NCBI GenBank assembly: GCA_964507855.1
Contig: CAZDQS010000001.1
Location: 102,121-166,120, forward strand
DNA: 64,000 nucleotides
Source: an uncultured Candidatus Saccharibacteria bacterium
GTDB lineage: Bacteria > Patescibacteriota > Saccharimonadia > Saccharimonadales > CAZDQS01
Direction of reading: 5' to 3'
The notes under the pieces: generated by a model
Seen by the model: the letters and a program-made list of their open reading frames with translations, nothing else
What the model was told of the DNA's origin: nothing
Databases searched by the model: none
Shown here: piece by piece, positions 1,284 through 14,946 of the stretch
Numbering within the stretch: position 1 is the first letter of the stretch
Layout of the letters: each line of letters starts with the position of its first letter
Made by a program: the position numbers and the translations under genes

Positions 1284-2335
1284 CTAAGCGGGATGATGTG
1301 GCATTTGTCCATGAAGTGTTGGACGACGACATCAGCGTCGGTGGTGGTGATAAATGTCTGATGGTCTTTGAGAAAGTTTGTGAGAGAACGGCGGCGCCTG
1401 CCGTCGAGTTCGCTAAATACATCATCGAGCAGCAGCAGAGGAGGTTGGCCGCGACTCTCTTCCAGTAGCTGCAGTTCTTTGACTTTAAGCGCCAGCATGA
1501 GGGTGCGGGTTTCACCGCGCGAAGCAGACTCTTGGGTGGGGTGGCCGTTCAGTGTCATGGCGATATCATCACGGTGCGGACCATCACCGGTAAAACCGCG
1601 CGCAAAATCCAGTTCCTGGTGCCGCTCGAGGCTCTTGAGCATGTGCGAACTATATGCGTCCAATTGATGCCGGCTCGTGTAGTCCAGCGATACCTGGCTC
1701 TTTGTGCCCGCCAGGCCGCCGTACAGCTCGTCCAAGCCCGCTGACAGCCGCTCTACTAATGCATACCTATGTCCAGCAACTTGCCCGCCCAGCTCGCTTA
1801 AACGGATGTTCCAGGCAAAGAGCTGTGACGCGCCCAGTGATTGATCTTTTTTCAGCAGGGCATTCCGCTGCGCGAGGGTGCGGCGGTACTGCTTCAGCAG
1901 CGTGCCGTAACCGGCGACCGTCTGCTCCAGTAAGCCGTCAATGAACTCGCGGCGCAGCTCCGGCGACCCGTTTAGGAGTTGGAGATGGTTCGGCTCAAAC
2001 AGCACCACGGGCACCGTTTTATTCAGTGAAAGTCGCTGTAGTTGCTGATCATCAATAGTAAAACTCTTTTTTGTCCGCTCGCCGTCCTTCTGGAGCTTTA
2101 CGGTCCGCGCCTGGTCATGACTATGCGCATCAATCCGCGCCCATTGGCTATCGAACGCCACCAGCTCCGCGTCTTTTGCCCGATATGATTTGCCGACCGA
2201 GGAGACCAGCACCGCCTCAAGCAGGTTCGTCTTGCCGCTGGCATTCGGCCCGACAATAATATTCACACCCGGCTCAAATTCAAATGTGTCATCTGAGTAG
2301 GACCTAAAATGCTGTAGCCGAATGTCGGTAATCAT
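1280..2335 (-). CDS. recF: DNA replication and repair protein RecF
   Basis: 351 aa. The N-terminus MITDIRLQHFRSY...IVGPNASGKTNLLEAV carries a Walker A motif and the C-terminus has LLLLDDVFSELD (Walker B). It sits in the classic dnaA-dnaN-recF synteny. Confidence 0.9.
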   Translation of the reverse strand: MITDIRLQHFRSYSDDTFEFEPGVNIIVGPNASGKTNLLEAVLVSSVGKSYRAKDAELVAFDSQWARIDAHSHDQARTVKLQKDGERTKKSFTIDDQQLQRLSLNKTVPVVLFEPNHLQLLNGSPELRREFIDGLLEQTVAGYGTLLKQYRRTLAQRNALLKKDQSLGASQLFAWNIRLSELGGQVAGHRYALVERLSAGLDELYGGLAGTKSQVSLDYTSRHQLDAYSSHMLKSLERHQELDFARGFTGDGPHRDDIAMTLNGHPTQESASRGETRTLMLALKVKELQLLEESRGQPPLLLLDDVFSELDGRRRRSLTNFLKDHQTFITTTDADVVVQHFMDKCHIIPLS

Positions 2336-2372
2336 GGCAGTATAAAGTTTTTAAAGTTTATAAAGATAAAAG

Positions 2373-2717
2373 TCATAGTGTCTTGATTAAACCTGAGAGT
2401 ATCTTTGATACTTCAGTCGCTCGTTGAACCAATTCTTTGCTTTGTTTGGGGTCGATAACTCCAAGGCTCCTCCCTAGATGCGCCATAGAACGCACTTCGC
2501 CACACGATCCTTTAGCAATAAATAAAAATTTTTTAAATTCTTTATTGCTTTGTCGCTCAAAACCTTCGGCAATGTTATTCATAATTGACACGCTCGCTCG
2601 CTGAAGTTGGTCTTTATAACCAAAATCTCGGCACTCTTTGAGCAAGCCGTAAACCTGGATACTCAACTCATGAGCTTTCTGCCACGCAACAATATCCTCA
2701 AAATGACTTATCGCCAT
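2373..2717 (-). CDS. four-helix-bundle protein (23S rRNA intervening-sequence protein / Avd-like family, TIGR02436 type)
   Basis: 114 aa with the family signature: ...WQKAHELSIQVYGLLK...QLQRASVSIMNNIAEGFERQSNKEFKKFLFIAKGSCGEVRS... Confidence 0.75.
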   Translation of the reverse strand: MAISHFEDIVAWQKAHELSIQVYGLLKECRDFGYKDQLQRASVSIMNNIAEGFERQSNKEFKKFLFIAKGSCGEVRSMAHLGRSLGVIDPKQSKELVQRATEVSKILSGLIKTL

Positions 2718-2763
2718 GGCTCAACTTTACACTTTTTACCTTAAACTTTCGACTTGCTCAAAT

Positions 2764-3855
2764 CTACGATTTGAGCGGCATAATGATGTGCGTATAATCG
2801 GGATTTTGCGCATCCTTGAGGACAGTCGCCTCAAGCTTGCCGTTAAAACCAAATGTTACCTCATCACCACCAAGCGCATGGAGTGCATCAAGGATGTAAC
2901 GTGAATTGAGCGTAATATCGCCGCTGCCGGTGATTTTGCCGGGAGCTTTGGCGGTGTTTTCACCGAGTTGTGAGGCAATCGAGCGGATACTGATTGATTG
3001 ATCCTCGTCGTCGACGTGGATTGTCACACTACCGGCGCTTTCGCGCGCAAAGAGACTAGAAACCTTGGTAACGTTCGTGAATTCAGCCCGCTTTACAACG
3101 GCAGATGTAGCAAACTGGCTTGGTATCAGTTTACGGTAGTCGGGGTAGTTTCCTTCAATGAGGCGGGTGACAAGCTCGACATCTCCCACCTTAAACAACA
3201 CCTGCTGGTCATCGTGGGTAACCTCAGCGTCTTCTTCGGCGTCCGAAAGGATGCGGAGCAAATCTTGCATTGCAGTAGCCGGAACCAAGATACCAACCTC
3301 ATCCTTTAGGTTAATAAGCTGTTTTTCGGCTAGCCGGTAGCTATCTGTCGCTACCATATGCAGCTTACCTTCAAAGGTATGGATATAGACACCTGTAAGC
3401 ACCGGCCGTGCCTCATCACTCGAGGCCGCAAACACCACCTGTTGCAGCGCTTTCTTCAGGAGCGGGCCGGGGACCTTCCAGCTCTTACCGTCACTGATGG
3501 CCGGCATGACCGGAAAGTCTTCTGCCGACACGCCATTAATGACCGAGTTGTATTGGTCGGTGCTGATGTGTAGTTTGCTGTCATCCAGCTCAAGTTGGAT
3601 CACGCCGCCAGGCAAGCTGCCGACAAAATCCTGCATGAGCCGGGCAGGGACGGTGATTGAACCTTCATTCGAAACCTTCGATCCGATATAGTGCGTGATA
3701 GCAATGTCGAGGTTAGTGGCTGCGATACTGAGCCGATTGTCGACCGTCTTAAGGAGCACATTAGAAAGAATAGGTAACGTGCTTCGGCTACTCGCTACCC
3801 GAGCGACAGAGTTAAGGGCTTTGGCGAGATTTTCCTGGGTGACTTGCAGCTTCAT
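2764..3855 (-). CDS. dnaN: DNA polymerase III subunit beta (sliding clamp)
   Basis: 363 aa. N-terminus MKLQVTQENLAKALNSVARVASSRSTLPILSNVLL and C-terminus HIIMPLKS. It lies immediately downstream of dnaA. Confidence 0.92.
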   Translation of the reverse strand: MKLQVTQENLAKALNSVARVASSRSTLPILSNVLLKTVDNRLSIAATNLDIAITHYIGSKVSNEGSITVPARLMQDFVGSLPGGVIQLELDDSKLHISTDQYNSVINGVSAEDFPVMPAISDGKSWKVPGPLLKKALQQVVFAASSDEARPVLTGVYIHTFEGKLHMVATDSYRLAEKQLINLKDEVGILVPATAMQDLLRILSDAEEDAEVTHDDQQVLFKVGDVELVTRLIEGNYPDYRKLIPSQFATSAVVKRAEFTNVTKVSSLFARESAGSVTIHVDDEDQSISIRSIASQLGENTAKAPGKITGSGDITLNSRYILDALHALGGDEVTFGFNGKLEATVLKDAQNPDYTHIIMPLKS

Positions 3856-4122
3856 GGTATTACTCCTTAATAACTTATTTATATATTAGTAGTAGTTTTA
3901 GTAAGGTGTGTGGATGGTGGGGAAAAGTGGGAGAAAAACAGAGGTAGTTTAGGCTCTAGCGGGGTGGAAAAGTGTGCGGAAAAGGTGGGTGTAGATTGAG
4001 TAAAACTTGTGTTCGTTATCCCCAGGGCATGTGGGTGAGGTGGGGCTTGTGGATGGGTGCGGGTATCTTCCCGCAGCTTGTTCACATGGTTATGCACAAG
4101 TGCTGCACAGCTTGAAGATGGC
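3856..4122. promoter_or_regulatory. candidate second oriC module in the dnaA-dnaN spacer (degenerate DnaA boxes plus AT-rich unwinding stretch)
   Basis: TGTGGATGG occurs at 3909..3917 and 4048..4056, with two mismatches to TGTGGATAA. The motif GGAAAAG (CTTTTCC on the gene strand) is repeated. A strongly AT-rich tract at about 3861..3900 abuts the dnaN start. Confidence 0.35.
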
Positions 4123-5496
4123 TTACGCATACAGCCGCTCCTTGATCTCTGCGATGGTCTGACGGATGCGCGGGTCGAAACCTGCTTCGCGCTCGATTTT
4201 TTCGATCGAATGGATAGCGGTGGTGTGGTCTTTGCGGCCGAGCTCCCGGGCAATCTTAGGGAAGCTGAGGTGCAGCTCGCTTCTGAGCATGTACATGGCG
4301 ATTTGCCGCGGCACAACAATGTCTTTGTCACGCTTTGGGCCGAGGATATCTTCGACAGATATCTGGAAGTGGCGGGCCGTACGTTCTATAACCTGCTTGG
4401 CGCTGAGGTGTTTTGGCCGTGTTTTGGCAGCGCCGAAGAGGCTGGTGGTGATAGTAATGTCCGGCTCCAGGCCGCGCATTTCGCAGAATGCCAACAGTTG
4501 GTTAAGCGCACCCTCGAGTTCGCGGATATTGGTTTGGACATGAGTTGCCAGATACTCGACGACGGGCTGGGGGAGGGTCACGTTATGGCTGTGGGCCTTT
4601 GCTTGGACGATGGCACAGCGGGTCTCAAAGTCCGGCGCCTGCATATCAATACTCATGCCCCAGGCGAAGCGCGACCGCAGGCGCTCTTCGAGCGTGGGGA
4701 TGTCTTTCGGTGGTTTGTCGCTCGAAATAATAATCTGCTTGTTGGCCTGGTGAAGGGCATTGAAGGTGTGAAAGAACTCTTCCTGGGTCTTTTCTTTGCC
4801 GGCTATGAATTGGACGTCATCAATAATAAGCACGTCACAATTACGGTAGTAGCTGGCAAAATCGGTATTCTTCTTGAAGCGGATAGCGTCGAGAAACTCC
4901 TGTACGAACTGCTCGGTGGATACGTAAACAATCCGTGCGCTAGGGTTGCCGGCGAGGACCGCATTGCCAACCGCTTGGATGAGGTGGGTTTTGCCGATAC
5001 CGACGCCGCCGTACACAAACAAGGGGTTGTATTTTGTGCCCGGGTTTGCGGCGATTGCTTGGCAGGCCGCATAAGCCAGTTCGTTGCCGGAACCAACGAT
5101 AAAGGTCTCGAACGTGTATCGCTCATTGAGTCCTTGGCGGTATGAGTGGGTGAGTGTGCTGGTGTGTTTTCGCGGCGCGACTGCAACCGGCTCCTCGGCC
5201 GGCCGCAGGATAACCGGCTCTTCTGATTCGGTTTTCTTTGGAAGGGTAATAGAAGAGTGGATCTTGAACTCCACCCGCTCCGGCTTGATGCCGTTTTTTT
5301 CTAATACGGCGGATATGAGGTCGCTGTATTTACGCTCTAGTTGTTGCTTGATAAATACGTTTGGCACCCCAATGACGGCCACACCGTCTTTATAGCGCAA
5401 CAGGCAGGTATTCTTAAACCACGTGATGTAATTGCCACGAGAGACAGATAGCTCGATTTCCCCTAAGACAGCTTGCCATGTGGCGGTTTCTTGCAT
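4123..5496 (-). CDS. dnaA: chromosomal replication initiator protein DnaA
   Basis: 457 aa with an AAA+ core (YNPLFVYGGVGIGKTHLIQAVGN, LIIDDVQFIAGKE) and a C-terminal DNA-binding domain (IVVPRQIAMYMLR...GRKDHTTAIHSIEKI). Confidence 0.95.
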   Translation of the reverse strand: MQETATWQAVLGEIELSVSRGNYITWFKNTCLLRYKDGVAVIGVPNVFIKQQLERKYSDLISAVLEKNGIKPERVEFKIHSSITLPKKTESEEPVILRPAEEPVAVAPRKHTSTLTHSYRQGLNERYTFETFIVGSGNELAYAACQAIAANPGTKYNPLFVYGGVGIGKTHLIQAVGNAVLAGNPSARIVYVSTEQFVQEFLDAIRFKKNTDFASYYRNCDVLIIDDVQFIAGKEKTQEEFFHTFNALHQANKQIIISSDKPPKDIPTLEERLRSRFAWGMSIDMQAPDFETRCAIVQAKAHSHNVTLPQPVVEYLATHVQTNIRELEGALNQLLAFCEMRGLEPDITITTSLFGAAKTRPKHLSAKQVIERTARHFQISVEDILGPKRDKDIVVPRQIAMYMLRSELHLSFPKIARELGRKDHTTAIHSIEKIEREAGFDPRIRQTIAEIKERLYA

Positions 5497-5554
5497 ACCC
5501 TCTCCTGATTCGGCGTCATGTTTTTGACGAGTTGCCCATAACTATACCGAACTT

Positions 5555-5700
5555 TGCTACTTTTCCACAAGCCCGTGGAGAAAATAGGTAAGAGTCACAA
5601 GACAATCCATCTCAACAGAGAACAAATTATCCACAAGCATAAATAACACCTAAGATTCTGTGGATAAAACCCACCAAAGCGTGGATAACCCTGACCGGAA
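5555..5700. promoter_or_regulatory. oriC DnaA-box cluster (dnaA-rpmH intergenic region)
   Basis: Perfect TTATCCACA at 5627..5635, and TGTGGATAA (the same box inverted) at 5659..5667. CGTGGATAA at 5680..5688 and TTTTCCACA at 5561..5569 each have one mismatch. Confidence 0.65.
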
Positions 5701-5840
5701 CTGTGGTTTAGTATTGTGAATTTCACGCTACGGCAGAACGCTTGCACCCACCCGCATCAACAAGAAGGGGATAGGGCGCGGTGTCAATATCGAGCGATAA
5801 GGGGTTGAGGTTTTTTGCCGTATCTGTTACTGTATAGTTT

Positions 5841-5978
5841 ATGCCGAAACGAACTTATCAACCAAAGAAGCGCAAGCGTGCCCGCGAGCATGGTTTCATG
5901 GCGCGCATGGCGACAAAAGCCGGTCGACGCGTGCTGAAAAGTCGCCGCATCAAAGGCCGCACACTCCTGAGCCGTTAA
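5841..5978 (+). CDS. rpmH: 50S ribosomal protein L34
   Basis: Hand-translated 45-aa ORF that is not in the track (<60 aa): [45 protein letters not shown]. It lies directly upstream of rnpA. Confidence 0.92.
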
Positions 5979-6032
5979 TCCAGCAAAACAACGTTTTCTT
6001 GCGGCTGGGATTTAAAACTTATCTCTAGCACT

Positions 6033-6404
6033 ATGATCTCCAGGACGCACCGCTTTCATGGCCACAACTCATTGCGCTACGTGTACCAGCACGGCAAGGT
6101 GGTGCGTGGATCTCATTTGTCAATCAAGCATATTATTAATGAGCGTCGCAAGACGTATCGCTGTGCTGTTGTGGTGAGCCGCAAGGTGCACAAATCAGCC
6201 GTTGTGCGCAACCGTATCCGTCGCCGAATATATGAGATTGTGCGGCGCCACGAAGGGCAGATAGAGCAGTCCCACGACATTGTTATTACGGTTTTTAGTG
6301 AGCAGATTGCTGCGATGCCAGCTGCCGAGCTAGAGCGAATGGTGCGTACATTGCTGCGCCGCGCCAAGATAATTACTCCGCCCGCCAAGTCCCGCGCCAG
6401 CTGA
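6033..6404 (+). CDS. rnpA: ribonuclease P protein component
   Basis: A 123-aa basic protein (…VVSRKVHKSAVVRNRIRRRIYEIVR…) in the conserved rpmH-rnpA-yidC order. Confidence 0.85.
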   Translation: MISRTHRFHGHNSLRYVYQHGKVVRGSHLSIKHIINERRKTYRCAVVVSRKVHKSAVVRNRIRRRIYEIVRRHEGQIEQSHDIVITVFSEQIAAMPAAELERMVRTLLRRAKIITPPAKSRAS

Positions 6405-6491
6405 TTTTCTTGTCAACGAACAGGCGACAGGTGAGCTAATAGATGGTACTATAAGTGCAGTAACAAACTGTACGCACCTGGGAGATTTCTT

Positions 6492-7427
6492 GTGTTTGAG
6501 ACCCTTATTGTTCAACCGATTTTTAACCTGCTCGTCCTCATTTATGCGCTGATTCCCGGACATAACTTTGGCCTGGCGATTATTATCTTTACGATTGTTG
6601 TCCGGCTGCTGATGTGGCCGCTGGTTAAGAAGCAGCTGCATCACACGCGCGAAATGCGCAAACTCCAGCCAGAGCTGAAGCGCATCAAAAAAGAGGCAAA
6701 AGGCGACCGCCAGCGCCAGCAACTCCTTATGATGGAGCTGTACAAGGAGCGGCACATTAATCCGTTCGCGCCGCTCGGCCTCGTGCTGGTCCAGGCGCCG
6801 ATATTCTTTGGGCTGTTTTTCGGCCTGCGCAATATTGTCGAAAACCCCAATGTTATCGTCGATAACGCCTATCCGTTTATCAGGAACCTTGGCACGCTCA
6901 AAGAGTTGGCTGTTGACATCACCCGCTTTGACAGCACACTGTTCGGCGTCGTCGACCTGACCCGTACCGCGCTCGGTGAGGCCGGCGTGTACTGGCCGGC
7001 GATGGTGATTGTCATCGCCAGTGCGGTCATGCAGTACTTCCAGAGCAAGCAGCTAACACCGCAGGATAAGGACGCCCGGGGCTTACGGCAAATTATGCGT
7101 GAGGCTGGGCAGGGCAAAGAGTCGGACCAGGAAGAGGTCAATGCGGCGATTGGGCGTATGTCGATGTACTTCCTGCCGGCGCTTATCTTCTTTATCTCGC
7201 TCGGCATTGCGGCTGCGTTGCCGCTGTACTGGTTCGTCGGTGGGGTGGTGGCCTATCTGCAGCAGCGTCATGTCTTGAGTCGCGACGAGACGGAGCTTGA
7301 GTCAATTGCCTCACGGCCCGCCAGTACCGACGTGATTGAAGGTGAAGTCATTGATGAAAAACCAAAAACAAAAAGTGCCAAAAAAGCTAAAAAAACCACG
7401 CAGCGTAAGAAAAAGCGGAGGAGATAG
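6492..7427 (+). CDS. yidC: membrane protein insertase YidC (short monoderm type with Lys-rich C-terminal tail)
   Basis: 311 aa with a GTG start. It has the YidC/Oxa1 core (…IIFTIVVRLLMWPLVKKQ…MRKLQPELKRIKK…) and the tail KPKTKSAKKAKKTTQRKKKRRR. Confidence 0.9.
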   Translation: MFETLIVQPIFNLLVLIYALIPGHNFGLAIIIFTIVVRLLMWPLVKKQLHHTREMRKLQPELKRIKKEAKGDRQRQQLLMMELYKERHINPFAPLGLVLVQAPIFFGLFFGLRNIVENPNVIVDNAYPFIRNLGTLKELAVDITRFDSTLFGVVDLTRTALGEAGVYWPAMVIVIASAVMQYFQSKQLTPQDKDARGLRQIMREAGQGKESDQEEVNAAIGRMSMYFLPALIFFISLGIAAALPLYWFVGGVVAYLQQRHVLSRDETELESIASRPASTDVIEGEVIDEKPKTKSAKKAKKTTQRKKKRRR

Positions 7428-7975: not shown

Positions 7976-8023
7976 CTTGACTTATATCAAAAAATATGAT
8001 ACAATGAGAAGATAGGGTAATGT

Positions 8024-8057
8024 ATGCGTTTCGCTGAACGAGGCGCATTCTTTTTTA
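8024..8057 (+). terminator. rho-independent terminator after jag
   Basis: The stem ATGCGTTTCG (8024..8033) pairs with CGAGGCGCAT (8039..8048), including G-U pairs. The loop is CTGAA and a TCTTTTTTA run follows. Confidence 0.5.
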
Positions 8058-8233
8058 TCAGAAAATCACGTTCAATATGAGGGTCAGCAAGATTGTCAGC
8101 AGAATACTGAGGATAATGCTCGGCCACCAAAGAAACTTAATCTGAATTTTACCGCGCTGCCTGCTCATAACAATCAACAATGTATCGCTAGTTGAGAGTA
8201 GGGGCTGTAAACTTCATTACTACTTATTGATTA

Positions 8234-11116
8234 ATGGTATTAACCGTGTCATGCTATCAAAAAGCTTGGTGGCATATGGTGATCAATAACCACTGGACAA
8301 CTATATTCCAGAAATTCGTCACAATGATGGCCGTTGTTGTGATGTTGCTGGTAGTGAGTCTTTTGACCAATCAGGCAGGCAGCCACGTTGATGCGGCGGA
8401 CGAGTTGGGGTGGATGCAGTCAGGTCTGGCTGCTTCGCTTGGCGAGGAAGTAGACCAGGCGGATGTTAACACTGGCCCACACGATTGTTACCAGACTACG
8501 TTGCGGGTACAGCGATATACACAGGGCTTCAATAATAACTGGTTACCACGTGAAGATCGAGTTATGCAGGTTTGTGCCCTGCAGACTCCTCTAGGTTTCG
8601 TGGCTGACACTGTTGAGGGGACGTATATCCAATTCACCGGCACCACGTACGCGCAAAAGCTTGTAGGCGCCTCAGGCCTCAGGGCTTATCCAGTTCCGGG
8701 ACAGCGGACGGTGGTGACGCGTGATGGCACGAGCACGAGCTATGCGTCGCGTCGGACCCGGATTCATTACAATATCGCCGCTGTTGGCGAGAGTGTGATC
8801 GAGAGCGGCGAGCGAGTGTTCAGGGTTAATTCATTTCCGGATCCATTTAGGGATGCAGATGGAAACACGCTGGAGGTGGACAACTACACGTTTTCGCGCA
8901 ATGGCGAATGGATGGTGGCAAACGTGCGCGGGGTGATTATGCGCATTCACGTCAAGACCAAGGCGATGCAGACGATTGGCAAGGGTGGGGTTGGCAGTAC
9001 GTCATTCCAGTTTGCAATAAGCAATGATGGGCAATATGTGTATTCGCGGGCAAGTTTTGGGCTTAGTGTCCCGTCGCAGCATCTATATGATTTGCGGGGT
9101 TGTCAGCCGAGCCAGGAGTATGAATATTCATATCCACACGCAATAGCGCCGGGCTGTACGCGGCGGGATATCGGACAGGTGTTGCGTCAGCAGGTGAGCG
9201 GGTTCTTTGGGTTATCTGGCATGCGGTTTAACCACGATGGTTACACGCTAACGGGCTACATGTCGTATACCAAACCGGGCGAGGACCGGCCCACCGGACT
9301 GCGGCGTATCAAGATTACACCGGAAGGGTATGTGGAGCCCTCGCTACAGTACTTGGCGCTAGGTGATTCGTTTGCTAGCGGTGAGGGTGATACGGAGGGC
9401 GGTATGTGGTACGAGCCGGGAACGGATACGAGCCAGAACAAATGCCACCTCAGCCGCCGCAGCTACCCTTACTTAATAGCCACGCAACTCGGCTGGCACG
9501 GCGGTATTAACCAGTCGCCCGCTCCCGAAAGCCCGTTTCACAGCATCGCCTGCAGCGGCGCAAGAAGCACCAATATATTTAATGGCACTGGGTTTGACCC
9601 TACCCTCACAATACCCACTAGAGACAATCAATATTCTGAAGTACCGGAAGTCAATGGTTTAGGGGATTGGATGCCTGGGTATATAGCTCAAATAGAGTTT
9701 ATGAAGAAATATAATCCAGAAGTAACTACAATCTCGGCAATAGGAAACAATATAGGTTTTACTGATAAGCTCATCCGTTGCCTCGAACCCGATACTTGCT
9801 ATAACACATATGAAGATCGTAAAGAGATAGCGCTTGAGATTCAAAGTAAATTCGAAGTACTGACAGCTATGTACCAGCAGCTGAAAGAAGCTGCTGGTAC
9901 AGAAGGAAAGATTTATGTGCTAGGTTACCCAAGGTTAGCGGACCCAAATGGTAACTGCGCTGTGAATGTGCGCCTCAACCAACACGAGTTGAAGTTTGCA
10001 AATGAGCTTGTACATTACCTAAACGCAGTAATTGAGTCGGCAGCGGAATATGCTGGTGTAATGTACGTTGACGTGGAGAGTGCGCTTAGGGGTAAAGAGC
10101 TCTGCGCCGGCCCAAGCAGTGAACTTGCGGTTAATGGATTAACAGCTGGAAATGACCAATTTGAAGTAGTGGGTAATGAGAGTTACCACCCTAATCATCG
10201 TGGCCACGAGCTCTATGTTCAGAGGGTCTTGGGCCAAACAGAAAGCTTTACTAGACCTATGCCTACTCATAACTACGCAATTTCTCCACCTCTAACCACG
10301 GACGATCAATTCAGTGATTTCTTTGCGGATGTACCGAAAGCCAATAGGCCTCTCAACAAGCTTAATTACGATAATGACACAGAAAATAATGTAGTCTATC
10401 GGGAGCAGTGGCTGGAGTGGACTTTGCAAGGAATTAAAAACCATACAGCACCACACAAAAAATATAGTGTGTTTATCAATTCGACCCCAACATACTTGGG
10501 TGATTTTGTAGCGGACGGTAATGGCGATCTGGTTATTGCAGCAAAGGTGCCGGGCTCGCTAACGCCTGGCTTCCATACGTTACATGCGTATGGTGAGAAC
10601 CTCGCAGGAGAGAGTGTGGACATATACCGAACGATATATGTGGCGGCAAGCGAAGATGACTATGACGGCGATGGTATATCGAACAGCGATGATGCTTGCA
10701 TTATTGCCGAGCCTTCAAGGCAAGATCGGGATAAGGATGGGATCGATGATGCTTGTGATGGCTATATCGGCTTACCATCAATTGCTTTATCCATAGGACA
10801 ACCAGACACACTGCCTGAAGTTAGAGGAGGCGATAGCCTATTAACAACTGCTAGTGTGCCTCTCCGAAGTCTTCTTGCCGCTTCACCATCAACTACAGTC
10901 GTGATGCAAAAATCAAAGAAAATAACTTCAGCTGAAGCCCGAAGTGTAGATAGTCAGCCTACACATACCCGCAGAGAGATTGTTGTTGAAGAGAGACATT
11001 GGTGGGGTAGGGCATGGCCAGCCATCATACCCGTCATGCTTATAATCCTTGTAGCAGTTGTACTTATAGGTAAGTTCTATAAAATCACTCACAAAGTGCA
11101 CAACAAGGTAAAATAA
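8234..11116 (+). CDS. large surface protein with SGNH/GDSL hydrolase domain, thrombospondin-type-3-like Ca-binding repeats and a C-terminal membrane anchor
   Basis: 960-aa ORF. The true start is probably ATG 8276 or 8324, just before the signal-like segment MMAVVVMLLVVSLL. It has GDS block I (YLALGDSFASGEG) and a block V-like motif (SYHPNHRGHELY). It also has DDYDGDGISNSDDAC...DRDKDGIDDACD and a C-terminal TM helix (AWPAIIPVMLIILVAVVLIGKF). Confidence 0.65.
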   Translation: MVLTVSCYQKAWWHMVINNHWTTIFQKFVTMMAVVVMLLVVSLLTNQAGSHVDAADELGWMQSGLAASLGEEVDQADVNTGPHDCYQTTLRVQRYTQGFNNNWLPREDRVMQVCALQTPLGFVADTVEGTYIQFTGTTYAQKLVGASGLRAYPVPGQRTVVTRDGTSTSYASRRTRIHYNIAAVGESVIESGERVFRVNSFPDPFRDADGNTLEVDNYTFSRNGEWMVANVRGVIMRIHVKTKAMQTIGKGGVGSTSFQFAISNDGQYVYSRASFGLSVPSQHLYDLRGCQPSQEYEYSYPHAIAPGCTRRDIGQVLRQQVSGFFGLSGMRFNHDGYTLTGYMSYTKPGEDRPTGLRRIKITPEGYVEPSLQYLALGDSFASGEGDTEGGMWYEPGTDTSQNKCHLSRRSYPYLIATQLGWHGGINQSPAPESPFHSIACSGARSTNIFNGTGFDPTLTIPTRDNQYSEVPEVNGLGDWMPGYIAQIEFMKKYNPEVTTISAIGNNIGFTDKLIRCLEPDTCYNTYEDRKEIALEIQSKFEVLTAMYQQLKEAAGTEGKIYVLGYPRLADPNGNCAVNVRLNQHELKFANELVHYLNAVIESAAEYAGVMYVDVESALRGKELCAGPSSELAVNGLTAGNDQFEVVGNESYHPNHRGHELYVQRVLGQTESFTRPMPTHNYAISPPLTTDDQFSDFFADVPKANRPLNKLNYDNDTENNVVYREQWLEWTLQGIKNHTAPHKKYSVFINSTPTYLGDFVADGNGDLVIAAKVPGSLTPGFHTLHAYGENLAGESVDIYRTIYVAASEDDYDGDGISNSDDACIIAEPSRQDRDKDGIDDACDGYIGLPSIALSIGQPDTLPEVRGGDSLLTTASVPLRSLLAASPSTTVVMQKSKKITSAEARSVDSQPTHTRREIVVEERHWWGRAWPAIIPVMLIILVAVVLIGKFYKITHKVHNKVK

Positions 11117-11127
11117 GGCAGGAGATA

Positions 11128-11649
11128 ATGATGAAAACCAAAAGAACCCCAATAGCATTAATCGCTATATTTATGTTGCTTGTAATACCTGCGGCTATAA
11201 TTGGTGTGCGGGCTTATAAAGAAAAAACTGATCTGGGGATGATAGAGGCGAGTATGGAAAGTTTACTCGCCGAAATCCAACCCTTAGGGGTTTCTGGCAG
11301 CATACAGAAAGGTTGCGGCAGGCCGGATGAAGTATTCGGTGAAGGAAATTTAAGTTGCTCAATGGGTATAGAGGGAGTATTTCAGTCTGTCGAGGGTGAA
11401 GTAGGTAGCAAGATTTCAGATATCGAGCAAGCCTTAGCGAATGACTTCGTGCTTATCGGAAATCAAAACCTACCTATCGTAAAAGATAATCATTTTATGA
11501 CGGTTATAAATAGCTATAGACATGATCATACCAACCTTAATTGTTATGCAGTTTATCAATCCGAGGAGATGGGTACTATTTCTACCGATAGCCTATCCGT
11601 GCAATATAGCATCTATTGCCCCAAGCAAACTCTTTTTGAATACTTCTAG
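11128..11649 (+). CDS. membrane-anchored Cys-motif protein, paralog 1 of 4 (unknown function)
   Basis: 173 aa with SD GGAGA upstream and an N-terminal anchor. It shares the motif CGRPDEVFGEGNLSCSMGI with the three following ORFs. Confidence 0.6.
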   Translation: MMKTKRTPIALIAIFMLLVIPAAIIGVRAYKEKTDLGMIEASMESLLAEIQPLGVSGSIQKGCGRPDEVFGEGNLSCSMGIEGVFQSVEGEVGSKISDIEQALANDFVLIGNQNLPIVKDNHFMTVINSYRHDHTNLNCYAVYQSEEMGTISTDSLSVQYSIYCPKQTLFEYF

Positions 11650-11683
11650 CTTACACCTAGACTAATGACTGGCAGTGCGACTA

Positions 11684-11857
11684 ATCCAGGGCTTTGTTAT
11701 TAACTTCGAGCGTTTGCTTGGCGCAGTGTTGCCAAGAGTAGAGGGAAGCGACTTTTTGCCTTTGGTAATTAACTCTGTTTTAAGCTTTTCATCATCAAGT
11801 ATATCGGCGATTTTATCCGCCATGTCCTGGACATTGAGAAGGGCTAAGTAATGGAAT
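11684..11857 (-). pseudogene. remnant of a GT4 glycosyltransferase 3' end (duplicate of the 3' end of the gene at 13843..14946, frameshifted)
   Basis: 11703..11854 aligns by eye with 13865..14017 (about 14 substitutions and one 1-nt indel, T5 versus T6). The track ORF 11662..11913 translates to LNVQDMADKIADILDDEKLKTELITKGKK, compared with LNVQDMADKITEILDNEKLKTELITKGKK in the intact gene, then diverges after the indel. No N-terminal GT sequence is present. Confidence 0.75.
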
Positions 11858-11968
11858 TGGCGTAAAATTATATCAATTACATTAACCATATTAATACTGA
11901 TGGGTGGCCTCAATATACTTAAGAGACATATGAACCAAACAGCAGATTAGGAGTACAATGAAAATATT

Positions 11969-12580
11969 ATGAGCATGAAAAATAAAGACTTCATACAACA
12001 TAAGCGCACGCTATCTATGATTATAGTTTTCGTGCTTTTAGTGTTTGCTGCCTACTTTGTGATGAAAGTCTTTGAGGGCGAAAAAGATTATCGTACTAGG
12101 GAAGACTTCAGAAGTACTGAAAACATAATTAATGGTGCCTATGCTGCTATCGAACATGATCTTAGTGAGCTGAACTTAAAACAAACTAACAATAAGTGCA
12201 CAAGAGCCAATCTAAAGTCAGAGCAGGGTCCGCTAATTTGTAGTACATCTATAAGCTTTACACTCCTGGCTGAAGATATTGAAGACGCGCAGAAATTGGC
12301 AGAACGGATACACGCATTGACAGGCCTACAGAAAGGCATCGATATAGCGGACGAAACCCCAAATTTGTTAGCTGCAGAAGAGGAGAAATATCCTGGCAGC
12401 AGCTTGCCGATAGAAGCTCGAAGTGGTTTTTCGATAGCCCAAGACATGTCCTGTTCTATAGTTTTCAGATTTTTGCCCAGTACAAAAAATGAAGGCATCT
12501 CCGATGTGGCCAACAACAGCCTCTACACTAATATAGGATGCAATGCTCGTGCCAAAAATGAAATTTATCCATCTGAATAA
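11969..12580 (+). CDS. membrane-anchored Cys-motif protein, paralog 2 of 4
   Basis: 203 aa with an N-terminal anchor (LSMIIVFVLLVFAAYFVM). It has the motif CTRANLKSEQGPLICSTSI and the C-terminal IGCNARAKNEIYP. Confidence 0.6.
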   Translation: MSMKNKDFIQHKRTLSMIIVFVLLVFAAYFVMKVFEGEKDYRTREDFRSTENIINGAYAAIEHDLSELNLKQTNNKCTRANLKSEQGPLICSTSISFTLLAEDIEDAQKLAERIHALTGLQKGIDIADETPNLLAAEEEKYPGSSLPIEARSGFSIAQDMSCSIVFRFLPSTKNEGISDVANNSLYTNIGCNARAKNEIYPSE

Positions 12581-12596
12581 AAACAAACTATTGTAG

Positions 12597-13199
12597 ATGA
12601 AATCGAATAAAGTCGACAGAAGGTGCGTACTTCTTGCAGCTCTTGTCTTTGTAGCTGCTGTTGCTGGTTTTACATACAAGACCCATCAATTTAATAGTAA
12701 ATATAGGCCTAAAGAGAGTTTTGAAAGCGCAAGAATCACGCTCATACACCTACACGCATCCATTGAGGAGGACTTAGGGAGGGTGGGTGTATCTGAAAAA
12801 TCGGAGAGCTGCGGTCGGCCAAATCTGAAGGCTGGCGAAGGAGATTTGAGCTGTAGCGTGGGTATTGATTATGCATATGCTGTATCAGATATTTACGAGG
12901 CTGATAAGTTGGTAAACCGAATAGGTACTACACTAAAGGACAAACCACAGATATCTGTAATGGGTGAACCAAAGAGTTTAATCGAAGCGTTTGAGCAGAC
13001 GACAGGAAGCCAATTAGCGGAGACGCGATTTACATTCTATGATACTCAAACTTCTATGAGATGTACAGCACACTTCAGGTATGTACCCAAAGGTGCAGAA
13101 TTGCCACACTTTACCATAGCCGACCCTTCAAGCAACAACTTAGATGCAAGTATTTCGTGTGGTGGTTACGCAAGAGGCGAATATTATCCGGTACGGTAA
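12597..13199 (+). CDS. membrane-anchored Cys-motif protein, paralog 3 of 4
   Basis: 200 aa with an anchor (CVLLAALVFVAAVAGF). It has the motif CGRPNLKAGEGDLSCSVGI and the C-terminal SCGGYARGEYYPV. Confidence 0.6.
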   Translation: MKSNKVDRRCVLLAALVFVAAVAGFTYKTHQFNSKYRPKESFESARITLIHLHASIEEDLGRVGVSEKSESCGRPNLKAGEGDLSCSVGIDYAYAVSDIYEADKLVNRIGTTLKDKPQISVMGEPKSLIEAFEQTTGSQLAETRFTFYDTQTSMRCTAHFRYVPKGAELPHFTIADPSSNNLDASISCGGYARGEYYPVR

Positions 13200-13205
13200 G
13201 CTCTC

Positions 13206-13811
13206 TTGAATATGAGAAGATATAAAGCCAACAAGAAAAAAGTTTTACTATTCTTTATTCTATTTGCCGTCGGCACTTGGCTTCTAGTAGCCAATCTTAA
13301 CAGCCACAATCCCGGTCAAAAGACCAAGGAGCAGTTTGAGGATACTTTTGCCGCCCAAAAAGAGCTGCGCCAGCGGATAATTAACCAGTTCGGCGAACCC
13401 ATCTCGACGCGAGAAGAGAAGTCGTGTGGGTATGCATCACGTAAGTTCGAGAAAGGGCCGCTAGGGTGTGGAGTTCGTGTTTATCTATCATACGAAGTCA
13501 CTGATCATGAGGTAGCCGACAGACAAGCGCGACAAATAGATGAATTTGTTGGGCAGCAGACAGATGTGCTGACCAGGAGTAGCAATATATTTTTTATTGG
13601 ACCAGAGAAAAGATTTTCTCCACGTGAGCTCTCTGGTCGGCATCAGCAAGCGTCTGCTGGATTCGACTTTATAGACGAGAGTTTATTAGGGCTAAGTCTT
13701 TCATTTAATTATTACTTGGAGGAGGATTCCCGAGACAGGCTAGAGGTTGGATTAAGCGCTGGCGGAGAAGCGAGGGGTGAATTTTATCCCGTAAAAGAAA
13801 GCCCTTATTAG
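13206..13811 (+). CDS. membrane-anchored Cys-motif protein, paralog 4 of 4
   Basis: 201 aa from TTG 13206 (alternative ATG at 13212) with an anchor (VLLFFILFAVGTWLLV). It has the motif CGYASRKFEKGPLGCGVRV and the C-terminal GGEARGEFYPV. Confidence 0.6.
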   Translation: MNMRRYKANKKKVLLFFILFAVGTWLLVANLNSHNPGQKTKEQFEDTFAAQKELRQRIINQFGEPISTREEKSCGYASRKFEKGPLGCGVRVYLSYEVTDHEVADRQARQIDEFVGQQTDVLTRSSNIFFIGPEKRFSPRELSGRHQQASAGFDFIDESLLGLSLSFNYYLEEDSRDRLEVGLSAGGEARGEFYPVKESPY

Positions 13812-13842
13812 GTATTGGGCATATCTGAGCTAGTTTTATTGG

Positions 13843-14946
13843 CTAGCGGAGAGCCTTACTGTAGACTTCGAGTGTTTGTTCGGCGCAGTGGCGCCAGGAG
13901 TAGAGGGAGGCGACTTTTTTGCCTTTGGTAATTAACTCTGTTTTAAGTTTTTCATTATCAAGTATCTCGGTGATTTTATCCGCCATGTCCTGGACATTGA
14001 GAGGGTCGAAGTAATGGGCGCCGTCTTTGTACACTTCCGGCAAGCACGTAGCGTTGCTCGAGGCCACCGGCGCGCCGTGAACCATGGCTTCGAGGCCGGG
14101 AAGGCCAAAGCCTTCGCTCAAAGACGGGAAGCAATAGGCGGCCGTATTCTCGTACATCCAGCGCAACTGGCCGTCGGACACAAAGCCGGTGAAGACAATA
14201 TCCCTCACCCCTGCCCTCTCAGCTCTGTTCGCTATTTGTTCGTATAGTGCATCTTTCTTGCCGGCAAAGGCAAGGACCAGACCAGGATGAGATTGCTTAA
14301 GTATATTAAACGCTTCAATTAACCGCTCGAGGTTCTTGTGCGGCTGTGGCCGGCCAACATACATGATGAACTGCTTGCCCTGCAGCGCTTCGACCGGTTC
14401 CGGTGCGTCCGCTATCGGATCGGCGGCTTCGTACGTGACGGTAATCTTGCCCTCATCTATGCCGGCAAAGTGTGCAACATCTTGACGCACGTATTCCGTG
14501 GGTGTGATGACGGCCGCGGACTTCCGGGCGGCAATAAGATTGACGCGTTTGTATACGGCCTGCTTGGCTTTAAACATGAGTCTGTTCTTGGTCGGGTTGT
14601 CGAAGCGGATGGCCGTAAGGTCATGCATGGTGGTGACCGCCCTCCCCCGGTACAGTATCGGCTGCTGCACAAATCCGAAATGGACGAGATCGGGCTTGAG
14701 CCTCTGGAGCTGCCTCAGCAAACCGGTTTGCTCGCCGATACTCCCGAGCGCGTAATCAGACGGCTCGAGCGTGAAGTTCAGCGGCAGCTGAAGGCGCGAC
14801 AGATAGCTGGTCGGGACAAGCACGGTGTAGCGATATGGTGAATCAAGCGTGCTGAGATATTTCAGCAGGCCCTTCAGGTACGTCCCGCTGGAGGTGTCTA
14901 TCATGCGGGCGTCAATGACAATGTGTTTAGCGGCTGAGTTGTTCAT
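13843..14946 (-). CDS. glycosyltransferase family 4 (GT-B, Glycos_transf_1 type)
   Basis: 367 aa. The C-terminal half has the typical GT4 donor-binding region: YCFPSLSEGFGLPGLEAMVHGAPVASSN. Confidence 0.8.
   Translation of the reverse strand: MNNSAAKHIVIDARMIDTSSGTYLKGLLKYLSTLDSPYRYTVLVPTSYLSRLQLPLNFTLEPSDYALGSIGEQTGLLRQLQRLKPDLVHFGFVQQPILYRGRAVTTMHDLTAIRFDNPTKNRLMFKAKQAVYKRVNLIAARKSAAVITPTEYVRQDVAHFAGIDEGKITVTYEAADPIADAPEPVEALQGKQFIMYVGRPQPHKNLERLIEAFNILKQSHPGLVLAFAGKKDALYEQIANRAERAGVRDIVFTGFVSDGQLRWMYENTAAYCFPSLSEGFGLPGLEAMVHGAPVASSNATCLPEVYKDGAHYFDPLNVQDMADKITEILDNEKLKTELITKGKKVASLYSWRHCAEQTLEVYSKALR

Follow-up and report, generated by a model that had tools for sequence, protein, structure and literature searches.

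What do four short, divergent membrane proteins, encoded one after another behind the gene of a large surface hydrolase, do for an uncultured member of the Candidatus Saccharibacteria? The question is raised by a stretch of 64,000 nucleotides (contig CAZDQS010000001.1 of assembly GCA_964507855.1, positions 102,121 to 166,120 of the forward strand; hereafter the window), in which positions 11,128 to 13,811 hold an array of four open reading frames (ORFs) that we call p1 to p4. A preliminary description of this DNA had seen in them a diversified, membrane-anchored family with a shared cysteine motif and no assignable domain. We found that p1–p4 belong to a large, uncharacterised protein family of Saccharibacteria whose members as a rule adjoin the gene of an SGNH hydrolase. 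This conserved gene adjacency is the basis on which the two are genetically coupled, and it is highly probable that they are coupled in function as well. By analogy with a known system, the family might consist of membrane-tethered inhibitors or immunity factors of a surface lipase, a tentative reading to which we give somewhat less than an even chance.

Four paralogs of a new protein family

The array lies on the plus strand and comprises p1 (11128–11649, 173 amino acids, with a GGAG 7 nt 5' of its ATG), p2 (11969–12580, 203 amino acids), p3 (12597–13199, 200 amino acids), all three as in the ORF list, and p4 (13206–13811), which has 201 amino acids when read from a TTG and 199 from an alternative ATG at 13212, two codons downstream. 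These coordinates and lengths agree with the preliminary description, and the paralogy that it proposed was confirmed by BLASTP and by profile comparison. BLASTP connects p2 with p3 (1e-24), p3 with p4 (6e-16) and p1 with p3 (1e-7), and more weakly p2 with p4 (5e-6), p1 with p2 (6e-5) and p1 with p4 (5e-3), at protein identities of 20–32%. The alignment of the four has in common a basic N-terminus, a hydrophobic segment that forms a single transmembrane anchor, a C-x13-C block, a helix and an aromatic C-terminus. The C..G.L.C block is found in all four proteins. The aromatic ending had been described as ARGE[YF]YPV in three copies with a degenerate form in the first; it is exact in p3 and p4 only, since p2 ends in AKNEIYPS, and the degenerate form of p1 is TLFEYF. 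With its shortened middle region and its ...FEYF end that lacks the YP motif, p1 is the most divergent of the window copies.

The extent of the family became apparent from an exhaustive profile search seeded with the four anchor-trimmed window sequences, the hits of which were clustered at 50% identity. At E ≤ 1e-3 this gave 490 clusters, and at E ≤ 1e-10 there were 173. Almost every one of the top 150 clusters is 165–230 amino acids long and matches from end to end; the two members with source names are annotated as Saccharimonadales. Other searches returned far less. A word-indexed search with p3 yielded p3 itself only, from a single NCBI genome and from three Logan runs, and the same kind of search with an alignment of 142 members yielded 9 proteins; a locus search with p3 alone gave nothing in representative genomes, and one with a subset alignment of the family gave 2 metagenome loci. 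The window locus is present in runs SRR7082966, SRR7082968 and SRR7082976 of the source samples. In the family profile (A3), which was built from the 142 members, the window proteins score 147 (p3), 134 (p4), 117 (p2) and 76 bits (p1), with E values from 2e-44 to 7e-23.

Both cysteines of the C-x13-C loop are invariant across the 142 members. The loop itself occurs in two types, C-x-R-[PA]-N-L-K and C-x-Y-[AS]-S-x-[KE]-F, and the window contains both: the motifs of p2 (CTRANLKSEQGPLIC) and p3 (CGRPNLKAGEGDLSC) are of the R-type and that of p4 (CGYASRKFEKGPLGC) is of the Y-type. A third and a fourth cysteine (positions 156 and 188 of p3) are about 98% conserved, and 122 of the 142 members have exactly four cysteines. 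p1, p2 and p3 keep all four, and p4 has the loop pair only. Cys156 is absent from two members, one of which is p4, and both of these also lack Cys188, while one further member lacks Cys188 alone; the joint loss suggests that the third and fourth cysteines pair with each other beside a loop-closing pair of the first two. No DsbA-like gene was found in the 64-kb window, which is uninformative as to disulfide formation. The C-terminal consensus of the family reads A-K-x-E-[HY]-[YF]-P.

All but one of 129 full-length members have a hydrophobic segment at the N-terminus, and in 99% of these 128 a net positive charge precedes it (median +5). By the positive-inside rule this indicates an N-in, C-out topology, so that the earlier idea of a diversified extracytoplasmic family on membrane anchors is upheld. 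It was likewise right that no known domain can be assigned. The profile search led to no characterised family, no Pfam model covers the family or gives a meaningful match to any of the 142 members, and NCBIfam models and Protein Data Bank (PDB) sequences gave no match. The matches to DUF420, TolQ, TPR_21 and geopilin that appeared in the library searches were rejected as noise from the transmembrane segment and the helices.

Some members are longer, at about 300–320 amino acids. In P0034, P0064 and P0093 (the last at 8001–8966 of locus L093) an N-terminal extension of about 100–150 amino acids contains several extra hydrophobic helices and forms a polytopic-anchor variant of the family; in L093 the hydrolase still comes next.

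Pairing with a surface SGNH hydrolase

The gene ahead of the array (8234–11116, +) encodes a protein of 960 amino acids that matches Pfam Lipase_GDSL_2 (PF13472; E 4.5e-9, 37.5 bits against a cutoff of 32.9 bits). A hydrophobic segment at its N-terminus is followed by a domain of roughly 300 amino acids and then by the SGNH domain (residues ~373–662); the C-terminal part consists of Asp-rich repeats like those of thrombospondin type 3, a low-complexity linker and a transmembrane anchor with a basic tail. The closest solved relatives of the catalytic domain are a Streptomyces phospholipase A1 (4HYQ, 8.6e-11) and the lipase of S. rimosus (5MAL, 1.8e-8). The SGNH blocks I (GDS), II (G), III (GxN/D) and V (H) are present in the window protein (as LALGDSFASGEG, ACSGA, GNNIGF and SYHPNHRGH), and the catalytic blocks GDS, ACSGA, GN[DN] and SYHPN are essentially conserved in 13 orthologs, a few of which have single substitutions. 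Most orthologs with a complete C-terminus also end in a hydrophobic stretch and a basic tail. Judged by its sequence, the hydrolase looks catalytically competent and lipase-like. It shares with the Streptomyces SGNH lipases and phospholipase A1 the GDS block, a C-x-[RT]-[ST]-x-x-[AS]-YP segment and the ACSGA block, and differs from them in being four times longer, in its extra N-terminal domain, its Asp-rich calcium-binding-like repeats, its long linker and its C-terminal membrane anchor, and in having an accompanying partner gene.

The start of the hydrolase gene is ambiguous. The longest ORF begins at 8234, and ATGs that lie in frame at codon 15 and codons ~30–32 (MMAVVVMLLVV...) would give a more typical signal or anchor N-terminus. 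Just 3' of jag, the gene upstream, there are a promoter-like site (7977–8005) and a terminator-like hairpin (8024–8048).

The array had been described as sitting directly behind this gene, and the distance from the hydrolase stop to p1 is indeed 11 nt. The gaps between p2 and p3 (16 nt) and between p3 and p4 (6–12 nt) are equally short, which indicates co-transcription. That the family and the hydrolase adjoin each other proved to be a rule. A lone family member stands directly upstream of a hydrolase ortholog in 12 other genomes, with both genes on the same strand and 14–98 nt apart (loci L084, L038, L041, L011, L088, L089, L090, L091, L092, L093, L096 and L098). These make up 12 of the 13 other contexts that could be interpreted; two further contigs end inside the gene downstream of the family member. 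The hydrolases of these pairs have 845–1003 amino acids where the gene is intact, with pairwise identities of 30–54%; that of L084, for example, is 36% identical to the window enzyme (E 9e-135). All 80 related loci come from metagenome-assembled genomes of Saccharibacteria or Patescibacteria. The window itself carries dnaA, rnpA, yidC and jag, and its Jag protein shares 81% identity with the Jag of an uncultured Saccharibacteria genome.

What surrounds the pairs varies: a region of dnaA-rnpA-yidC-jag and a glycosyltransferase, a divergent type IV pilus operon, sigma-factor genes that precede the pair at one locus, and others. The pair thus seems to travel as a unit of its own and is not a by-product of general synteny. 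This bears on the idea that the family members are independent surface proteins, such as adhesins or factors of host recognition or antigenic variation, which would be co-regulated with the hydrolase and not bind it, an array of them broadening the host range. Rapid divergence and a hypervariable, length-variable middle region would suit such proteins, as would the pilus operon next to the pair in three genomes and the one member that occurs without a hydrolase. Co-regulation alone, however, hardly accounts for an adjacency that persists while the neighbourhoods change, and a small ectodomain close to the membrane would be poorly placed to reach a host through the wall of the epibiont. We regard this explanation as improbable.

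Pairing is also what one would expect if the family were a foldase, a steric chaperone or an assembly factor that helps the SGNH domain, with its several conserved cysteines, to fold, to become oxidised or to insert; this is the main rival to an inhibitor, and the partner gene, which is translated first, forms what looks like a tight operon with that of the hydrolase. On balance, and with the evidence given below, we consider a foldase rather unlikely.

The preliminary description had also placed the array in a stretch of low GC content. This is so (0.40–0.45, where the whole window has 0.495 and the next gene 0.55), and at each of the 10 other loci measured the partner gene has a lower GC content than the locus around it. 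A low GC content is therefore characteristic of the family and does not by itself prove a recent transfer of the window array.

Origin of the four copies

Among 14 genomes the window is the sole one with more than one copy, and it is also the sole case with copies downstream of the hydrolase; related genomes carry intact copies, one in each of the 12 other pairs. We computed neighbour-joining (NJ) trees with 200 bootstraps for the partners and for the hydrolases. A monophyletic group of p1–p4 appeared in 0 of 200 bootstraps. p3 has its best match in P0006, the partner in L088 (36%, 6e-31), and the L088 hydrolase is the closest one to the window hydrolase (about 48%, 100% bootstrap). p2 matches p3 best and then P0006, and a clade of p2, p3 and the L088 partner has 69% bootstrap. 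p4 matches best P0013, the L091 partner (34%, 3e-21), and other Y-type members that include P0020, the L092 partner; its top 12 matches contain no window paralog, and the clade of p4 with L091 and L092 has 50% bootstrap. The best matches of p1 all come from other genomes and none from the window, and p1 groups with the L011 partner at 77% bootstrap, both on long branches. By these relationships p1–p4 fall into at least three lineages of the family and do not represent a local duplication burst. p3 is the likely cognate partner of the window hydrolase, and p2 is placed by its sequence as an older duplicate within the p3 lineage.

This pattern matters for the function. Non-monophyletic copies, with p4 near the L091 and L092 partners and p1 near that of L011, are what is expected of orphan immunity genes and not of a dedicated foldase, for which four such copies, 20–32% identical, would be superfluous at a single hydrolase.

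The partner and hydrolase trees have three clades in common, namely the window with L088, L084 with L090, and L038 with L041. The identities of the top high-scoring segment pairs (HSPs) of partner and hydrolase pairs correlate weakly (Spearman rho 0.20, p 0.15) because short local HSPs distort the identity, so that the congruence of the trees is the more informative measure. The partner diverges faster than the hydrolase (36% against 48% for the window and L088; 47% against 54% for L084 and L090).

The DNA around the copies retains traces of how the array may have arisen. An intact GT4 glycosyltransferase gene (13843–14946, −) bounds the array, and within its 3' end lies the right one of two direct repeats (13865–14017, −). 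The left one (11703–11854, −) is a relic copy, about 152 bp long, of that gene's 3' end and is located between p1 and p2, where an ORF at 11662–11913 (−) translates to the C-terminal peptide of the glycosyltransferase. By blastn the repeats share 138 of 153 positions (90%, E 5e-55). p2–p4 are thus bracketed by direct repeats. An independent Logan contig (L001) corresponds to window positions 11810–13945 and breaks inside both repeats. We rejected the idea that the array arose by simple tandem duplication, as the copies are never monophyletic and the repeats are 90% identical in DNA against 20–32% in protein for the paralogs. Paralogs this divergent between such repeats suggest a footprint of recombination-mediated insertion or replacement.

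The slot between jag and the glycosyltransferase (7976–13842 in the window) varies in content among related genomes. The closest representative genome (L004) has nothing there and continues from jag directly with the glycosyltransferase, so that the whole block is accessory at that position. About 1 kb of other sequence fills it in L005 and the hydrolase alone in L010 and L012; a partner with the hydrolase is found in L011, L041, L038, L088 and L091, and the hydrolase with four partners in the window.

Predicted structure

AlphaFold2 was run on p3 with the family alignment and a second time on the ectodomain alone. The full-length model has a predicted local distance difference test score (pLDDT) of 92.2 and a predicted template modelling score (pTM) of 0.82; the ectodomain model (pLDDT 88, pTM 0.83) has the same topology. 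A transmembrane helix (8–35) is followed, after about 3 residues, by the globular domain, which opens with an amphipathic helix (39–60) whose conserved face F42/A45/L49/L52/I56 is buried in the model. Strands 65–73 and 85–96 bracket the Cys72...Cys86 loop. Next comes a helix at 99–114, in keeping with the helix that had been postulated after the cysteine motif. The segment of residues ~115–150 is poorly conserved, hypervariable and variable in length (pLDDT 68–73), and C-terminal strands are predicted at 141–149, 154–163 (with Cys156) and 180–192 (with Cys188). The models thus consist of two helices and a sheet of six to seven strands, an alpha+beta arrangement.

Foldseek searches of the PDB with both models gave no neighbour at E < 1e-3; the best query-normalised template modelling (TM) scores were 0.28–0.38, at root-mean-square deviations (rmsd) of 8–15 Å. 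One BFVD search gave nothing better. In these models a convincing structural neighbour is absent, and no fold assignment is made.

The weak likenesses that did appear could be read as a sign that the ectodomain is a lipid or product acceptor, which would take up fatty acids or lysolipids freed from host membranes by the lipase and pass them to the membrane of the epibiont. They are to alpha+beta folds that handle lipids, namely the CERT START domain, Ups1/PRELID, MTC28 and LpqN (probability ≤ 0.9, E 2e-3 to 3e-2), and a globular domain that begins so soon after the transmembrane helix would stand at the membrane surface. TM-scores of no more than 0.28–0.38 at an rmsd of 8–15 Å do not allow a fold to be assigned, though, and the polar loop, with its predicted disulfide closure, resembles a protein-binding element more than a lipid pocket. 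An acceptor of this kind has a slim chance in our estimate, and the same slim chance goes to its account of the array, in which separate copies would handle separate lipids.

Several folds were considered and rejected. The MTC28/LpqN fold reached TM-scores of 0.28–0.34, where about 0.5 would be needed, at an rmsd of 8–11 Å and was outside the top 50 for the ectodomain-only model. MTC28 (Rv0040c, 4OL4) and LpqN (6E5D) are secreted or lipoprotein alpha+beta sandwich proteins, extracytoplasmic in the mycobacterial envelope, of roughly similar size and with an antiparallel sheet on helices, and 4OL4 is the best Foldseek match of the full-length model (probability 0.9; 0.69 for 6E5D), but with E values of 2e-3 to 3e-2 and a sequence identity of 8–9% a shared fold cannot be claimed. 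For the helix-grip fold of START or Bet v 1-like lipid-binding domains, the CERT START domain gave E values of 1.4e-2 to 8e-2, TM-scores ≤ 0.37 and an rmsd of 13–18 Å. For the bitopic pilus-assembly proteins PilN/PilO/GspM, the T2SSM model matched 1 of 142 members at 3e-3 and PilO (3JC8) gave E 5e-2 with a TM-score of 0.26. Weak Foldseek matches to class II aminoacyl-tRNA synthetase cores and to phage tail terminators were likewise rejected as fold assignments.

A possible inhibitor of a surface lipase

The closest precedent for the gene arrangement is found in Staphylococcus aureus, in which tilA adjoins the 5' side of the phospholipase A gene tslA (PMC10730906). TilA is a membrane-tethered extracellular inhibitor of TslA with a Kd of 14 nM, and tilA occurs in multiple non-identical tandem copies that are thought to cover toxin variants (PMC10730906). 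The family described here resembles it in that the gene stands directly 5' of a phospholipase-type gene and the product is tethered at the outer face of the cytoplasmic membrane of a monoderm; the window adds non-identical tandem paralogs at a lipase locus, whose unmatched copies can be read as protection against foreign variants. The likeness is one of gene arrangement, and in the Saccharibacteria the array is seen in one genome only. Unlike TilA, the family has no DUF576 match, and its anchor is a transmembrane helix and not a lipobox, with no cysteine at the lipobox position. Its enzyme is an SGNH hydrolase with a C-terminal helix of its own, whereas TslA is an alpha/beta-hydrolase secreted by way of type VII secretion (T7SS) with Lap-like partners.

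By sequence-based topology and the predicted models, the N-terminal anchor (N-in, C-out) holds a compact alpha+beta ectodomain of about 160 amino acids near the outer face of the membrane. Its most conserved features are the 13-residue loop between the two invariant cysteines and the A-K-x-E-[HY]-[YF]-P tail. The partner enzyme is tethered in the same membrane by its own C-terminal anchor, and for a hydrolase tethered in this way self-damage is a plausible problem. If the analogy holds, the ectodomain may bind the catalytic domain of the lipase and stop its attack on the producer's own membrane. In the window, the resident hydrolase would have its cognate copy in p3, alongside the older duplicate p2. 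The lineages of p4 and p1 are those of partners that in other genomes go with other hydrolase clades, so these two would serve as orphan copies and neutralise lipase variants of competing epibionts on the same host.

Lipase-specific foldases (Lif, also LipB or LimA; Pfam Lipase_chap) fold the lipases of Pseudomonas, Burkholderia and Vibrio. The family is like Lif in its small size, its N-terminal membrane anchor, its extracytoplasmic domain and its place beside a secreted lipase in a unit of two genes, and its conserved loop and tail point to a contact that stays constant, as a foldase might make. The Lif genes, however, are single-copy, lie 3' of the lipase gene and encode an all-helical scaffold with an alpha/beta-hydrolase as its client, whereas the family gene precedes that of an SGNH enzyme and its product has conserved cysteines and a predicted alpha+beta fold. 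No match to Lipase_chap (PF03280) was found for p1–p4 at E ≤ 1 or for the 142 members at E ≤ 0.01. A foldase is also at odds with the hydrolase orthologs in L012, L010 and L024, which have no adjoining family member.

Those three orthologs weigh against an inhibitor too, and so do several other observations. The member P0074 (L094) has no adjoining hydrolase. Multi-copy arrays occur in 1 of 14 genomes only, the window, and the placement of p1, one of the two presumed orphans, depends on long branches. Immunity interfaces in polymorphic toxin systems are usually variable, whereas conservation in the family is strongest in one loop and the tail; such a pattern suits a constant target, for instance a catalytic cleft, and it suits no less a conserved ligand or the contact of a foldase. 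Lastly, the hydrolase is conserved and anchored, and no hallmarks of a type VI secretion system (T6SS), a T7SS or a polymorphic toxin were seen.

Membership in Lif, in DUF576/TilA, in MTC28/LpqN, in START and in PilO/GspM failed in each case, and the family is filed as a new family of its own.

Other features of the loci

In the window, dnaA and rnpA point away from each other at 4123–6404, on the minus and the plus strand respectively, which places the locus next to the presumed replication origin. The cumulative GC skew climbs almost monotonically over the 64 kb, and there is no sign change near dnaA/rnpA.

In L089 (1–7961), L092 (1–7853) and L093 (1–7906) the pair is divergent from a type IV pilus assembly operon, which contains genes for PilM, a PilN-like protein and PilB/PilT ATPases, with PilC in L093. 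Directly 5' of the family member in L084, two genes (5918–7235) encode apparently pilin-like surface proteins that carry an N-terminal methylation motif of the prepilin type; one of the two has a sub-threshold PsbP_2-like match (E 1.9e-4). In L088, four consecutive small genes (2089–4289, minus strand) lie 5' of the partner. Their products of 151–183 amino acids have no Pfam match, three of them share ...A(A/K)(G/A)TGY(S/T/A)(L/M)(S/T)..., and they resemble another small tandem paralog family. In L010, where the hydrolase has no partner, two overlapping small ORFs beyond its 3' end (10341–10981) encode near-identical single-pass membrane peptides of the MKKLPK... type.

Implications

Lipases that come with an accessory or immunity protein tethered to the membrane are known as a kind of system. 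Not described in the libraries and literature searched are the protein family, an assignment of its fold, the context of an SGNH enzyme with a C-terminal anchor, and the occurrence in Saccharibacteria. A literature search on Saccharibacteria together with GDSL or phospholipase gave nothing on a partner-hydrolase cassette, and a Southlakia transposon-sequencing (Tn-seq) paper makes no mention of lipases, esterases, SGNH/GDSL proteins or disulfides.

To our knowledge, the ability to make membrane lipids is lacking in Saccharibacteria and other ultrasmall epibionts, and Saccharibacteria depend on lipids derived from the host. It is possible, if doubtful, that a membrane-tethered phospholipase acting at contact range harvests or attacks the membranes of the host or of rival epibionts, with the family as its cognate anchored inhibitor. 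If this were true, the array in the window would be the first collection of orphan immunity genes in the candidate phyla radiation, and it would point to lipase-based competition between epibionts as well as to an enzyme for the acquisition of host lipids. The two-gene unit is a concrete and testable candidate for the interface between host lipid acquisition and self-protection. Whatever the mechanism, the family, with its 490 clusters, confident model and clear genomic signature, is suited to database annotation and to the choice of targets in tractable strains.

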